Made by a program: the position numbers and the translations under genes. Of a stretch of DNA of 64,000 nucleotides, positions 14,473-19,044 are shown one piece after another; within the stretch, counting starts at the first letter, position 1, and every line of letters starts with the position of its first letter. Source of the stretch: Flavobacteriaceae bacterium (GTDB lineage: Bacteria > Bacteroidota > Bacteroidia > Flavobacteriales > Flavobacteriaceae); NCBI GenBank assembly GCA_050330515.1, contig JBHJNU010000003.1, positions 15,560-79,559 of the forward strand. Direction: 5' to 3'. The notes under the pieces were generated by a model, which saw only the letters and a list, made by a program, of their open reading frames with translations, was not told where the DNA came from and ran no database searches.

Positions 14473-14925
14473 TTAAAGAATGGCAGCTACTTTTTCATTG
14501 ACGAACTCTAAAAACCGCTCATCCTCCTCGGTAAAAGGGTCAGGGGTATTCGAATCAATATCGATTTGGCCTATATTTTCACCGTTGACGAATAGGGGCA
14601 CCACGATTTCCGCCTTTACCGTAAGGCTGCATGCAATGTAGTTATCTTGGGCCTTTACATCGGGCACTACAAAATTTTGATTTGAAACGGCGACTTGGCC
14701 GCAGATACCCTTTCCAAAGGGAATAATGGTATGATCGGTAGGTTCGCCGACGTAGGGTCCGAGTTTCAATTCTTCCTTTTCTCCATTCCTAAAATAAAAT
14801 CCTACCCAATCATAGTGGGGCACGTTTTTTTGTAATAGTTCGCAGAGTTGTTGTAATCTGGTATCGGGGTCGGTCCCGGTATTATTTAAAATGGTCTCCA
14901 CTTTGGGTTTAAGGGCTGCTAGCAT
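14473..14925 (-). CDS. GAF-domain protein, free methionine-(R)-sulfoxide reductase (fRMsr/MsrC)-like
   Basis: WVGFY, GKGICG, YIACS, EIVVP and IDIDS. Probable start is Met 14925. Confidence 0.85.
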   Translation of the reverse strand: MLAALKPKVETILNNTGTDPDTRLQQLCELLQKNVPHYDWVGFYFRNGEKEELKLGPYVGEPTDHTIIPFGKGICGQVAVSNQNFVVPDVKAQDNYIACSLTVKAEIVVPLFVNGENIGQIDIDSNTPDPFTEEDERFLEFVNEKVAAIL

Positions 14926-15043
14926 AGAATTGTCTTTCAGTTTTTTTTTCAAAAGTCGATGTTTGGCTTAAAAGTTACAATACGATACCCCCTAAATATT
15001 CGTTAATATATGATCATGACATAACGGCCCATGGAATATTTCG

Positions 15044-15051
15044 TATTTTTG
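15044..15051 (+). promoter_or_regulatory. -7 promoter element (TATTTTTG) for the HYC_CC_PP locus
   Basis: Matches TAnnTTTG, 5 nt before the ATG at 15057. Confidence 0.55.
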
Positions 15052-15056
15052 CATTA

Positions 15057-15473
15057 ATGAAAGCGGTACTTCATAAGATAGCTTCAATGGCGATGGCCCT
15101 TTTGCTTTTGCTTTCCACGACCTCTTGGAAGGTGGAGAAGCATTATTGCATGGGTCGTTTGATCAATGTCGCCCTTTTCGTTCATGTCGATGATTGTGGA
15201 ATGGGTATGGACCTGGTCGGTAACCCGGAATCAAAATTACAAAATAGGAATTCGTGCTGCGACGACAATGTCGTTTTGATCGAAGGCCAGGATGATCTGA
15301 AAATATCTTTCAATGACCTTGACGTCAATGGGCAAACATACTTCATTGGCCAAAGCTACACTTTTAGTTATAGGGGTCTGATATTAACGCACAAAGCCGT
15401 TTCCCAAAAAACGTACCCGCCCCCGATTTTGGTCAAGGACATTCAGTTGCTTGACGAAGTTTTCTTGATTTGA
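15057..15473 (+). CDS. HYC_CC_PP family protein (exported, Cys/His motifs, C-terminal PPP)
   Basis: N-terminal hydrophobic segment followed by KHYC, DDCG, SCC and YPPP motifs. Confidence 0.85.
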   Translation: MKAVLHKIASMAMALLLLLSTTSWKVEKHYCMGRLINVALFVHVDDCGMGMDLVGNPESKLQNRNSCCDDNVVLIEGQDDLKISFNDLDVNGQTYFIGQSYTFSYRGLILTHKAVSQKTYPPPILVKDIQLLDEVFLI

Positions 15474-15478
15474 TACGT

Positions 15479-15566
15479 TGGTTTTTCCTTCCCACAAGTT
15501 TGGGAATTTGCCCATTTAGCTGCAAATAGGGCAGGGTGTCTTAGAGCACCTTGGAAAAAGTAACCA
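15479..15566 (+). ncRNA. Candidate structured cis-regulatory RNA (three hairpins closed by an outer stem)
   Basis: Base pairing found by eye: TTTTTCC 15482-88 with GGAAAAA 15553-59; TTCCCA with TGGGAA; TGCCC-ATTT with AAAT-A-GGGCA; GGTG with CACC. Confidence 0.4.
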
Positions 15567-15579
15567 TCAAATAAAAATC

Positions 15580-16305
15580 ATGAAACATACATACAGTATA
15601 ACCGGTATGACCTGCACTAATTGCGTGGCCTCGGTTGTTGCCGAACTTTCTAAAATAGAAGGTGTTACCCATGTTGCCGTAAGTCTGGAAAAAGGAGAGG
15701 CCGAAATGGAGATGGAAAGACATATTCCATTAGGGATCCTACAAACTGCCTTATCTAAGAAATACAGCATCAGCGTAAAAAGAAGTGGTGCTACCGATAT
15801 AATTGTCGACGGCGTTTCCGAAAAATCGAAACTACAGCAGTTGAAACCCTTGCTGTTGATCTTTTTGTACCTATTTGCTGCAGCTTTTCTGCTCCATATC
15901 AAGAATTGGAATACTGAAGAAGCCATGCTCGACTTTATGGGCCTTTTCTACATTGTTTTTAGTTTCTTCAAGTTATTGGACCTGAAGGGTTTTCCAGAGA
16001 GTTTTCGCATGTACGATCCCTTGGCGAAGTTAATGCCCGCCTATGCATGGGCCTATCCTTTTATTGAGCTTGTTCTTGGCCTGTTGCTGTTAATGCGTTT
16101 TCAAATCAACGCCGCGCTTTTTATCACCGTTGTAGTTCTTGGAATTACAACTATCGGGGTTTCTAGAACCTTATTGGATAAAAAAAGTATTCGGTGCGCT
16201 TGTTTGGGTACGGCGTTGAAACTTCCTATGACGGAGGCCACTTTCATCGAGAACACAATCATGCTGGTAATGGCGCTGACCATGCTGGTACAGAATTTTA
16301 TTTAA
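15580..16305 (+). CDS. Heavy-metal-associated (HMA) domain fused to a MauE/DoxX-like membrane domain
   Basis: GMTCTNC at the N-terminus, about 5 TM helices, and a CACLG motif. Confidence 0.9.
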   Translation: MKHTYSITGMTCTNCVASVVAELSKIEGVTHVAVSLEKGEAEMEMERHIPLGILQTALSKKYSISVKRSGATDIIVDGVSEKSKLQQLKPLLLIFLYLFAAAFLLHIKNWNTEEAMLDFMGLFYIVFSFFKLLDLKGFPESFRMYDPLAKLMPAYAWAYPFIELVLGLLLLMRFQINAALFITVVVLGITTIGVSRTLLDKKSIRCACLGTALKLPMTEATFIENTIMLVMALTMLVQNFI

Positions 16306-16394: not shown

Positions 16395-18653
16395 ATGAAA
16401 ACATACGTATATATACTAATCATACTGTTTCCGCTGCTTTCTTTTTCACAAGAAAAGGTAGAAGGCATGATCATGGAAGCGAACAGCACAAAAGAACATA
16501 TCGGCCTTTCAGGGGCCAATGTGTACTGGATGGATTCTCAAATAGGCACCATCACCAATGAAGAGGGGCTTTTCTCCATTCCTTATAAAAAGGAATACAA
16601 CAAATTGATCATTAGCTATGTTGGGTTCAGGTCAGATACCTTAACCATCAACCAACCAAAGGTAATCCATCATTCATTGCAGTCATCCAGTGCATTGGAT
16701 GAAGTAGTGGTTGAGCAAAAACGCGAGGCGGTTCAAAAGGCGTATTTCAGCTCTCAAAATGTGATTACGATAAATAGTGCCGAATTGTTAAAGGCGGCCT
16801 GTTGCAACCTTTCGGAGAGTTTTGAGACGAATCCCGCTATCGATGTCAATTTCTCTGACGCCCTAACAGGCACTAAACAGATTCAGATGCTGGGTTTGAC
16901 GAGTCCGTACCTGTTGATCACTCAAGAGAATATTCCTATGGTGCGCGGCGCTTCACAGGCCTACGGCTTGACGTTCACACCAGGTACTTGGGTAGAGAGT
17001 ATTCAGATTACCAAAGGAGCTGGTAGTGTGGTCAATGGCTATGAGAGTATATCGGGCCAGATCAATACAGAACTGGTCAAACCGTTCAATGACAACCCAC
17101 TTTTTGTGAACGGTTATTATAATTTTATTGGTCGGATGGAACTGAATACGCATTTGAACCATAAAATAACCGATAAGTGGGGTACGGGCCTTTATATACA
17201 CGGTAATAAAATAGGTCAAAAGGAAGAGAATAACAATGATGGATTCTTGGATGTTCCCTTGGCGGATCAGATCAATGTAATGAGCCGTTGGCAGTATCAA
17301 AATGCACAAACAGGATGGGTAAGCTTCTTAAGTTTGCGGTATTTGAACGACCAAAAACAAGCCGGTCAAATTGATTTCGACCCTGGTACCGATAGGCTTG
17401 GTTCTAATGTCATAATTACAGGCAACGAAGTTTGGGGAAGTGAAATAGATACTCAAAGGTTCGACTCTTCACTGAAAGTAGGTTATGTTTTTCCAGAGCT
17501 TCCTTTTCAAAGTTTTGGTTTTCAAGCCTCGTTCAGCAGTCATAGGCAAGATTCTTATTTTGGTGTTAACCGCTATGATATCGATCACCAAAGCGTGTTT
17601 TCGAACCTCTTGTTCAACTCGATCATCGGCGATACCCAGAGCAAGTTCACTACCGGATTGACCTTTGCCTATGATGGCTACGAAGAATTGGTCAACACAC
17701 AGCTTTTTACCAGGGAAGATTCGTCGGTAGGGGCCTTCTTTGAGTATAGTTATACCAATCTAGAAAAGTTGAGCTTAACGGCAGGTTTGCGGGTCGATAA
17801 TCACAACCGGTTGGGTACATTTATGACGCCAAGAGTGCATGTCCGCTATTCTCCTTGGGAAAAGGCAAGTCTGAGGGGTTCTTTCGGAAGGGGGCGAAGG
17901 GCTGCCAATATTTTTGCCGAGAACCAGCAGTTGTTCGCCTCTTCAAGGCAAATTCAAATACTCGATACCGAGGGAAGCATTTATGGTCTGGATCCAGAAG
18001 ATGCATGGAATTATGGTTTTAGTTTTCTTCAGGGGTTTACTTTTCTGAACCGGCCAGGAAACGTCACGATCGATTTCTATAAAACAGATTTTAAAAATCA
18101 AGTTGTGGTAGATTGGGAAAATCCGAGGGTAGTATCCTTTTATAATCTAGACGGGAAAAGTTATGCCAACAGTTTTCAGTTCGAGGTCAACCACGAGATA
18201 TTGAGCAATTTAGAGTTACGCACGGCCTACAAGTATTATGATGTCAAAACTGATTATCGAAGTGGTTCATTGCAAAAGCCCTTACAGGCTCAACACCGGT
18301 TTTTTGCCAATTTAGGCTATGAAACAGCCCTTAAGGATAATGGCTCGCAATGGAAGTTCGATTATACCGTTCATACCTTAGGAAAACAACGTCTACCCAA
18401 TACCGATGCCAATCCGCCCGAATTTCGATTAGGTGATTTCTCGGACCCTTATAGTCTAATGAATGCACAGGTTACCAAAGTCTTTTCCAAGAATTTCGAA
18501 ATGTATGTAGGGGGAGAGAATTTAACTAATTTTATGCAAAATAACCCCATTCTAGGTGCCGATAATCCTTTTGGTTCAAATTTTGATACGAGTATCGTGT
18601 TTGCACCTATAATGGGTAGAATGTTTTACACAGGATTTAGATATAAGATTTAA
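16395..18653 (+). CDS. TonB-dependent outer-membrane receptor with a Cys-Cys plug motif
   Basis: Signal peptide, carboxypeptidase-regulatory-like N-domain, LDEVVV TonB-box-like segment, KAACCNLSESFE plug, IQITKG, C-terminal GRMFYTGFRYKI. Confidence 0.93.
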   Translation: MKTYVYILIILFPLLSFSQEKVEGMIMEANSTKEHIGLSGANVYWMDSQIGTITNEEGLFSIPYKKEYNKLIISYVGFRSDTLTINQPKVIHHSLQSSSALDEVVVEQKREAVQKAYFSSQNVITINSAELLKAACCNLSESFETNPAIDVNFSDALTGTKQIQMLGLTSPYLLITQENIPMVRGASQAYGLTFTPGTWVESIQITKGAGSVVNGYESISGQINTELVKPFNDNPLFVNGYYNFIGRMELNTHLNHKITDKWGTGLYIHGNKIGQKEENNNDGFLDVPLADQINVMSRWQYQNAQTGWVSFLSLRYLNDQKQAGQIDFDPGTDRLGSNVIITGNEVWGSEIDTQRFDSSLKVGYVFPELPFQSFGFQASFSSHRQDSYFGVNRYDIDHQSVFSNLLFNSIIGDTQSKFTTGLTFAYDGYEELVNTQLFTREDSSVGAFFEYSYTNLEKLSLTAGLRVDNHNRLGTFMTPRVHVRYSPWEKASLRGSFGRGRRAANIFAENQQLFASSRQIQILDTEGSIYGLDPEDAWNYGFSFLQGFTFLNRPGNVTIDFYKTDFKNQVVVDWENPRVVSFYNLDGKSYANSFQFEVNHEILSNLELRTAYKYYDVKTDYRSGSLQKPLQAQHRFFANLGYETALKDNGSQWKFDYTVHTLGKQRLPNTDANPPEFRLGDFSDPYSLMNAQVTKVFSKNFEMYVGGENLTNFMQNNPILGADNPFGSNFDTSIVFAPIMGRMFYTGFRYKI

Positions 18654-18687: not shown

Positions 18688-19044
18688 ATGAAAAAAGCAA
18701 TAACAGTGATTGTGCTCGCACTTCTTACGGCAACAACTTTTGCGCAAGAAAAAAACAAAAAGGTAACTATGGAAGTTGACGGTGTTTGTGAAATGTGTAA
18801 AATACGCATCGAAAAGGCCGCTTTGGGCGTTAAAGGAGTAAAATATACCATATGGGATATTCCTTCGCATCAACTATCGTTAATTATTGATGAAAACAAA
18901 ACGGATCAAATGCAGATCAAAACGGCATTGGTGACTGCAGGCCACGATACCAAAGAATTAAAGGCAACAGAGGAAGCCTATAACAAGGTAATGCCATGTT
19001 GTAAGTACCGTGATGAAAATGTGGTGAAGGACCATAAGAACTAA
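18688..19044 (+). CDS. Exported heavy-metal-associated domain protein
   Basis: Signal peptide ending TFA-Q, DGVCEMC (CxxC), C-terminal PCC. Confidence 0.88.
   Translation: MKKAITVIVLALLTATTFAQEKNKKVTMEVDGVCEMCKIRIEKAALGVKGVKYTIWDIPSHQLSLIIDENKTDQMQIKTALVTAGHDTKELKATEEAYNKVMPCCKYRDENVVKDHKN

Follow-up and report, generated by a model that had tools for sequence, protein, structure and literature searches.

Small exported proteins whose nascent chains sense metals and control the genes behind them are a recent discovery, so far described for one protein family in Shine-Dalgarno-using Proteobacteria. CutF of Rhodobacter capsulatus, a DUF2946 protein, is the leader of cutO (PMC9973294); its PPP motif occupies residues 114-116 of 118, 2-4 residues from the end, and the stalled ribosome touches the stem-loop that follows (bioRxiv 10.1101/2025.02.05.636593). 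CruR, upstream of bfrG in Bordetella pertussis, acts via release of an arrest at a RAPP motif and Rho-dependent termination (PMC9426467). According to Öztürk et al., Bacteroidota contribute 19% of a set of 5,334 CutF-like proteins, and their genes have AcrB-type and TonB-type neighbours (PMC9973294). Here we analyse a stretch of 64,000 nucleotides (nt) from a Flavobacteriaceae bacterium (assembly GCA_050330515.1, contig JBHJNU010000003.1, positions 15,560 to 79,559 of the forward strand; hereafter the window), in which a gene for a small exported protein of the HYC_CC_PP family (DUF8199; 15057-15473, + strand) is followed by a gap of 106 nt and by the ATG of the next gene at 15580. A preliminary description of this DNA, made from its letters, had proposed that the gene and a cloverleaf RNA in the gap form a metal-sensing leader-peptide switch. 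We find that the element kept in relatives is a long helix that ties the stop codon of HYC_CC_PP to the start region of the next gene. Gene and helix together would constitute a translation-coupling switch heading metal operons, a reading to which we give an even chance of being correct; the next gene is then probably translatable only when a ribosome finishes HYC_CC_PP.

The fold of minimum free energy (MFE) of 15465-15590 is a four-way junction with three hairpins (15489-506, 15509-33 and 15534-51), which reproduces the structure first drawn for the gap. Its energy is -38.7 kcal/mol compared with -24.8 +/- 3.5 for 200 dinucleotide shuffles (z -3.9), none of which is as stable (0/200). The closing pairs join TTTTTCC (15482-88) with GGAAAAA (15553-59) and GTTG (15477-80) with TAAC (15561-64). 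An additional outer pairing, absent from the preliminary description, joins ATTTGAT (15468-74), which holds the stop codon, with ATCAAAT (15566-72), so that the closing helix sets in 3 nt ahead of the stop and ends 7 nt short of the ATG. On the + strand the 5' arm of this stop-to-start helix spans 15468-15488 (ATTTGAT, GTTG and TTTTTCC, separated by ac and g), and the 3' arm spans 15553-15572 (GGAAAAA, TAAC and ATCAAAT, separated by g and c). Hairpin 1 (15489-15506, + strand; TTCCCA/TGGGAA) is the sole internal hairpin conserved within the class of loci with an HMA-MauE gene downstream, the class to which the window belongs, and hairpins 2 and 3 (+ strand) are lineage-specific filler. By a tRNA scan the gap element is not a tRNA. 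No unusual structure is seen in the next gap of the operon (z -0.31), which separates the HMA-MauE gene from the TonB-dependent receptor gene.

Relatives were collected by searching 41 related genomes, by a scan of GTDB genomes (507 confirmed relatives) and from a phylum-wide sample, giving 97 non-redundant HYC_CC_PP loci and 27 more distant ones. Relatives assign the window to the genus Maribacter in the family Flavobacteriaceae. One long-range helix, from the stop-codon end of the gap to the next-ATG end, recurs in about 115 loci of several Bacteroidota orders. It encloses a spacer of 60-150 nt with 1 to 5 hairpins, most often 2. Hence the closing helix of the structure first proposed is conserved and its cloverleaf is not: relatives at 91% and 82% protein identity keep the window's junction, hairpins 2 and 3 included, whereas a relative at 66% has a wholly different interior of 155 nt in which both hairpins are gone, yet it still pairs GATGTATTGTCAT with ATGACAATACATC at its two gap ends. 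In the MFE folds of 87/90 loci, 6 or more base pairs (bp) connect the first 32 nt, counted from 9 nt before the stop, with the 42 nt that precede the ATG, and the closing stem reaches at least 10 bp in 79/90 HYC loci vs 122/561 same-strand gaps of the window's genome. The 5' arm of most loci begins within -6 to +5 of the stop codon, and 1-14 nt separate the end of the 3' arm from the ATG.

Energies tell the same story family-wide. The duplex formed by the region from stop-9 to +22 with that from ATG-45 to -1 has a mean energy of -13.9 kcal/mol in the 90 HYC loci, as against -8.6 kcal/mol in 620 same-strand gaps of the same genome (p = 2e-20 by a Mann-Whitney test). By this measure the locus in the window takes 8th place of 620, and the mean fold z-score over HYC loci is -4.45. 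A 5' arm pairs more strongly with the 3' arm of its own locus than with those of unrelated loci (-9.4 vs -6.5 kcal/mol), the proper partner falling within the best 5% in 26/90 loci. Folded as the sense strand, the gaps gain 4.3 kcal/mol in stability over the antisense strand (88 loci vs 25, p = 4e-11), a difference that speaks for a structure formed in RNA and against a DNA palindrome. Arm sequences are wholly unlike between classes and orders while the pairing is kept, and the Flavobacterium-type branch and other orders form the helix from entirely different arms, including at loci that end in TAA or TAG. A count of ungapped pairs around the stop codon was dropped, shuffled sequences having passed its threshold in 49% of trials. 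Strong stop-to-start pairing is also seen at a few other same-strand gene pairs of this genome outside the window (contigs C97:13538-13629 and C99:22763-22909), the C97 example lying between two open reading frames (ORFs) of about 280 amino acids (aa); with a control mean of -8.6 kcal/mol, such pairing is not genome-wide.

Compensatory changes were scored on alignments made with the covariance models R1 and R2, as plain MAFFT alignments of the gaps misplaced the 3' arms; antisense matches, which arise because the helix reads as a palindrome in DNA, were excluded. In the RND (pump-linked) class, 20 gaps realigned by covariance model have 92.8% of cells paired and 10/22 pairs with changes on both sides, a score matched by 0/500 shuffles, and slid controls reach at most 48%. 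The HMA-MauE class, represented by 16 sequences of which the window is one, scores 0.258 for covariation vs 0.124 in shuffles (0/500). Here hairpin 1 has 96.9% of cells paired and all 4/4 modelled pairs covary, while the outer helix is 67-75% paired; it aligns less cleanly because its register and bulges differ between lineages. Of the four stems in which the preliminary description had proposed to look for covariation, the closing helix and hairpin 1 covary, and hairpins 2 and 3 come and go with the lineage.

The stop codon itself (15471-15473, + strand) is paired inside the helix as UGA. TGA ends HYC_CC_PP in 90/97 loci (93%), followed by T in 88, against a TGA share of 19.5% among the genome's ORFs of 200 aa or more. 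Conservation within the protein peaks over its final 19 residues, Y-x-PP-x-L-V-K/R-D-I-Q-L-L-D-x-V-F-L-I; in the window the codons of this tail, YPPPILVKDIQLLDEVFLI, occupy 15414-15470 (+ strand). Tail codons vary freely at synonymous sites, Leu -2 and Leu -7 each using all six codons, which points to selection on the peptide. Fixation at the nucleotide level is limited to the last codon, ATT in 82/91, which lies inside the helix. The PP pair stands at -17/-16 from the stop, about 48 nt away, in 94/94 loci with an alignable tail, and 12 residues from the end in the Flavobacterium-type branch. With PP 16-17 codons before the stop, a ribosome stalled on it would end about 30 nt short of the helix. 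The stall at PPP that had been proposed as the opening step therefore fails on geometry, and PPP itself is not invariant among family members, the invariant core being Y-x-P-P. We infer that any pause able to open the helix would have to take place around the stop codon, either over the final codons or on UGA itself. By analogy, such a pause would resemble termination control of the TnaC type or compaction of the tail in the exit tunnel as in VemP.

Pairing of this kind is predicted to hide the next start. Under full partition-function folding, the mean probability of being unpaired for positions -18 to +3 of the downstream ATG is 0.31 vs 0.50 for 150 control genes of the same genome (p = 2e-26). 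When a ribosome-sized footprint centred on the HYC_CC_PP stop is held open, the predicted mean rises from 0.31 to 0.60, and in the window from 0.40 to 0.77. Thus the earlier idea that a ribosome at the end of the leader opens the structure finds support in these predictions for a ribosome on the stop codon, from which the helix is predicted to be within reach, and not for one on the PP codons. Bacteroidia ribosomes do without Shine-Dalgarno pairing, and initiation is tuned by mRNA structure and by A-rich upstream positions (PMC6847099, PMC7797042). Given that initiation in these bacteria depends on mRNA structure rather than on a Shine-Dalgarno sequence, masking of the start should be effective. 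No conserved in-frame extension past the UGA was found, the next in-frame stop coming at a median of 16 codons with a wide spread. Selenocysteine insertion (a SECIS element), read-through and fusion at the UGA are discarded, the downstream ATG being in frame in 29/90 loci, the one third expected by chance.

The product of 15057-15473 is 138 aa long and reads, from the N-terminus, as a hydrophobic segment predicted to serve export, H29-Y-C31, D46-C-G48, S66-C-C68 (the CC pair at 67-68), a spacer of fixed length, Y120-PPP123, the conserved tail and TGA. The PPP codons lie at 15417-15425, with 15 further residues before TGA at 15471-15473. Its assignment to HYC_CC_PP, made in the preliminary description from the letters, is borne out by the NCBIfam profile NF047658 (92.4 bits vs a cut-off of 28, spanning 1-131 of 131), and every position given there for the ORF, its motifs, PPP, the 106-nt gap and the ATG agrees with the sequence. 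A precomputed Pfam match in a large protein collection places the product in PF26622, that is, DUF8199. None of the papers we found mentions HYC_CC_PP, DUF8199 or NF047658. Across 59 sequences H29, C31, C68, P122 and P123 are invariant and C67 nearly so; M32, C47 and M49 are conserved as well, and H, C and M residues are among the invariant ones. In all 97 divergent loci, 71-77 aa separate the CC motif from the C-terminus (residues 67-138 in the window, 15255-15473), although the stretch between CC motif and tail is the least conserved part of the protein. There is a single hydrophobic segment, of membrane or signal type, with an N-terminal hydropathy maximum that averages 1.59 in HYC_CC_PP loci. 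A second transmembrane helix that would put the tail in the cytoplasm is ruled out, the maximum elsewhere averaging 0.87 and reaching 1.6 in none. A globular fold was likewise set aside, as AlphaFold2, given 59 sequences, returned no confident one (predicted local distance difference test score 56.6, predicted template modelling score 0.23).

On the upstream side, a Bacteroidota-type -7 promoter box, TATTTTTG (TAnnTTTG; 15044-15051, + strand), ends 5 nt before the HYC_CC_PP ATG. The box is found within 150 nt upstream of HYC_CC_PP in 78/90 loci, starting mostly at -12 to -16 from the ATG (mode -13) and otherwise at -48/-49; the loci with the latter spacing were first called with a later ATG, and an upstream GTG looks like their real start. 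With the transcription start placed by the published promoter consensus, a -7 box that adjoins the start codon suggests that the HYC_CC_PP mRNA is leaderless or nearly so. An internal promoter within the gap was rejected, as the box occurs in only 6/90 gaps after HYC_CC_PP. About 45 nt 5' of the -7 box lies a conserved element, ATACGAT...TTCGTTAA (also written ATACGAT ... CTAAATATTCGTTAA; 14980-15006, + strand, TTCGTTAA being 14999-15006). Its core, TT[CA](T/G)?GTTAA, stands at a fixed distance from the start in 58/97 loci against a background of 0.008 per 160 nt, and the element may be an activator or operator site to which a shared transcription factor binds. Directly behind HYC_CC_PP, an HMA-like protein and an AraC regulator are encoded at some loci. 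The divergent neighbour upstream of the window's gene encodes a free-standing GAF-domain protein of 159 aa (14473-14952, - strand), and the same neighbour adjoins HYC_CC_PP in several related genomes.

HYC_CC_PP was found in 77/301 sampled Bacteroidota genomes, among them 21/22 of the sampled Flavobacteriaceae, and in 0/14 control genomes. A gene on the same strand follows it in 96/97 loci, the remaining locus stopping at a contig edge, at a distance of 10-330 nt, mostly 75-170 nt. That gene encodes an HMA-MauE protein in 33 loci, an AcrB-family CzcA/CusA-like pump in 20, a TonB-dependent receptor in 18, a 257-aa outer-membrane-like protein in 9, an HMA-like protein with an AraC regulator in 8, an HMA P-type ATPase in 4 and another product in 5. 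In accordance with the metal genes first noted downstream, the followers are thus metal-related genes of six kinds, and one small gene in front of six unrelated kinds of metal gene is the pattern expected of a portable cis-acting module. In the window the next gene (15580-16305, + strand), whose start region is predicted to be masked, encodes an HMA domain fused to a MauE/DoxX-like membrane domain (Pfam HMA 1.9e-8, MauE 1.1e-16), and the operon continues on the + strand with a TonB-dependent receptor (16395-18653) and a small HMA-like secreted protein (18688-19044).

How would such a switch work? Judging from the promoter box, the mRNA would begin at the HYC_CC_PP start codon or no more than a few nt from it, and ribosomes would load there. 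In the computed structures a helix of about 12-25 bp pairs the last codon, the stop and the next 20 nt or so with about 25 nt ending just before the ATG, loops out a compact and variable hairpin cluster and buries the start region of the gene behind it. On reaching the last codons and UGA, a ribosome would unwind the 5' arm and so release the 3' arm, with the start codon still tethered close by, and initiation downstream could then be carried out by the terminating ribosome or by a new one. Downstream output would accordingly track ribosome flux and dwell time at the HYC_CC_PP stop. More speculatively, dwell time might be set by the nascent tail (xPP-x12-15-stop), by the near-universal UGA and, as in CutF, by metal on the exported His/Cys/Met motifs. 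Taken to its end, this last step would make HYC_CC_PP a nascent-chain metal sensor, unrelated to DUF2946, that acts at termination, metal tuning the dwell time on the stop and hence the opening of the helix. We put this forward tentatively, as a plausible and attractive idea but a rather doubtful one. While the ribosome sat on UGA, the exit tunnel would be occupied by the xPP-x12-15 tail, and the H/C/M motifs, kept at a fixed distance by a spacer of about 72 residues, would lie just outside the translocon; the time for which the helix is open would govern initiation of the pump, ATPase, receptor or HMA-MauE gene.

Several points weigh against the coupling switch and its metal-sensing extension. 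Some pairing between the two ends is present in the MFE folds of about 40% of ordinary gaps, so that the fold of a single locus is weak evidence and the case rests on family-wide statistics. The 8 loci with an AraC-type regulator downstream have weak helices (mean z -1.8). Because the alignments scored for covariation had been fitted to the model structure, their counts are biased upward. All figures for masking and unmasking are thermodynamic predictions, and the functional statements as a whole are built on such predictions and on sequence statistics. Simple coupling would not require a spacer of about 100 nt and leaves the retained hairpins unaccounted for. PP is too distant from the stop for a stall of the CutF type to open the helix, and the conserved tail could equally serve the mature HYC_CC_PP protein.

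Other explanations for the same features have to be considered. The helix may be an RNA processing or stability element, for example an RNase III cut site or a block to exonucleases, that parts an abundant HYC_CC_PP message from scarcer downstream ones, with HYC_CC_PP itself an ordinary exported metal-binding protein. Long helices (12-25 bp) that bracket GC-rich hairpins in an AT-rich genome, an interior that turns over freely like filler, and the retention of H29, C31, M32, C47, M49 and C68, as fits a functional metal binder, all suit this account. It leaves unexplained the fixed placement of the 5' arm at the stop and of the 3' arm at the next ATG, irrespective of the downstream gene, as well as the UGA bias and the low accessibility of the downstream start; most helices, moreover, are bulged and fall short of the roughly 20 uninterrupted bp typical of RNase III sites. 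We regard it as unlikely. The gap might also be a transcription attenuator in which hairpin 1 or a Rho-dependent site terminates unless a ribosome at the end of HYC_CC_PP interferes, as in CruR/bfrG or in the manner of TnaC. That hairpin 1 is GC-rich, directly follows the 5' arm and covaries is compatible with this, and CruR offers the precedent of a TonB-dependent transporter operon (PMC9426467). Yet a scan for intrinsic terminators on the + strand of 15474-15579 found none, relatives show no consistent U-tract after hairpin 1, a tightly structured gap is unfavourable for Rho loading, and the pairing of the 3' arm beside the ATG is not explained; attenuation thus appears quite improbable.

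Far less credence can be given to the two remaining accounts. A four-way junction upstream of metal genes invites comparison with ligand- or metal-binding riboswitches such as the four-helix NiCo (czcD) or the yybP-ykoY RNAs, but no family of Rfam 15, metal riboswitches included, matches the gap at E<=10 apart from noise, the sole match over it being a eukaryotic lncRNA model (E = 2, 21 bits vs a gathering score of 45). Nor are the junction and loop sequences conserved: the hairpin count varies from 1 to 5, the interior is replaced at 66% identity, and what persists is the closing helix, plus hairpin 1 in one class. A riboswitch is therefore very improbable. The same holds for a structure that arose by chance, as a DNA-level palindrome or from a miniature transposable element. 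AT-rich arms do pair easily, and shuffled 3' regions often reach 10/13 ungapped pairs; on the other hand, the energy comparison with 560-620 real gaps is highly significant, and compensatory changes, the preference for the sense strand and the presence across orders all speak against such an origin. A repeat or mobile element is ruled out by the single copy of the gap element in its genome.

If the coupling switch is real, HYC_CC_PP adds to the CutF and CruR leaders a second, unrelated family, widespread in Bacteroidota and with a different RNA signature, a covarying stop-to-start helix. DUF8199 would gain a function, the control of copper/zinc-type pump, ATPase and TonB receptor operons in marine Flavobacteria would find an explanation, and a natural system would be at hand for translational coupling and re-initiation without Shine-Dalgarno pairing. 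Should the metal-sensing extension hold as well, the Shine-Dalgarno-blind Bacteroidia would be seen to possess a portable, leaderless, post-transcriptional metal switch.

Kinship with the known leaders by descent finds no support. PF11162 (DUF2946) matches none of 15 HYC_CC_PP members at E<=10 by hmmscan, a six-frame search of the 41 related genomes for DUF2946 matched none, and hhalign gives a probability of 2% between HYC_CC_PP and six Bacteroidota DUF2946 proteins. On these three negative tests the description of the protein as a sequence-unrelated analogue, first offered from the letters, holds. Genuine DUF2946 proteins of other Bacteroidota end in RAPP followed by 2-4 residues and form a family separate from HYC_CC_PP. 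At two loci of this RAPP type (L122 1765-1850 and L127 1759-1845, with ends ...RAPPHNA* and ...RAPPQQA*) the Pro codons CCUCC pair with GGAGG 5 nt before the next AUG, placing the 5' arm on the arrest site; neither fold is strong (z -1.8 and -0.85), and the loci are closely related to each other.

In its organization HYC_CC_PP nevertheless shares much with CutF-cutO. Both are small exported proteins with a Cys motif and a C-terminal PP motif at the head of a metal operon, HYC_CC_PP showing the traits of a leader in its length of less than 150 aa, its predicted export signal, its Cys/His motif and its place at the operon head in 96/97 loci. In both an intergenic RNA shields the next start and the leader's own ribosome opens the structure, as is predicted for HYC_CC_PP, and CutF-like genes, too, precede RND pumps and TonB-type genes. 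The differences lie in the position of the proline motif, 2-4 residues from the C-terminus in CutF and 16-17 codons before the stop in HYC_CC_PP, and in the RNA: CutF has a simple stem-loop over a Shine-Dalgarno sequence, whereas HYC_CC_PP has a stop-to-start helix around a 60-150 nt spacer, an apparently leaderless mRNA and a host lineage that ignores Shine-Dalgarno sequences. CruR (bp2923)-bfrG resembles it in having an upstream ORF with a Cys motif, a TonB-dependent transporter operon and a long gap (162 nt); unlike CruR, HYC_CC_PP lacks a RAPP motif, and the gap behind it folds tightly.

Likenesses extend to systems that do not sense metals. In SecM-secA, MifM-yidC2 and VemP-secDF2, as is proposed for HYC_CC_PP, an exported nascent chain carries a conserved C-terminal segment and the control lies in the melting of a structure that hides the next start. 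These three sense the export machinery, and their arrest sites were mapped experimentally, whereas an arrest in HYC_CC_PP is hypothetical. A peptide conserved to its last residue and a preferred UGA suggest control at termination and so recall TnaC-tnaA, where arrest at UGA occurs at the termination stage; TnaC, however, is 24 aa long and cytoplasmic, senses tryptophan and acts on Rho, and the resemblance is only a lead. The predicted locking of a downstream start by pairing to coding or terminal sequence that lies upstream, opened by upstream ribosomes, is shared with classical translational coupling by long-range mRNA pairing, for example MS2 coat-replicase and L35-L20 (infC-rpmI-rplT). Unlike in those, the pairing partner in HYC_CC_PP is the stop-codon region, and the arrangement forms a portable module, carried by a dedicated small gene in front of many unrelated operons. 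On our best reading, the HYC_CC_PP module is functionally like the CutF and SecM leaders and unrelated to DUF2946.

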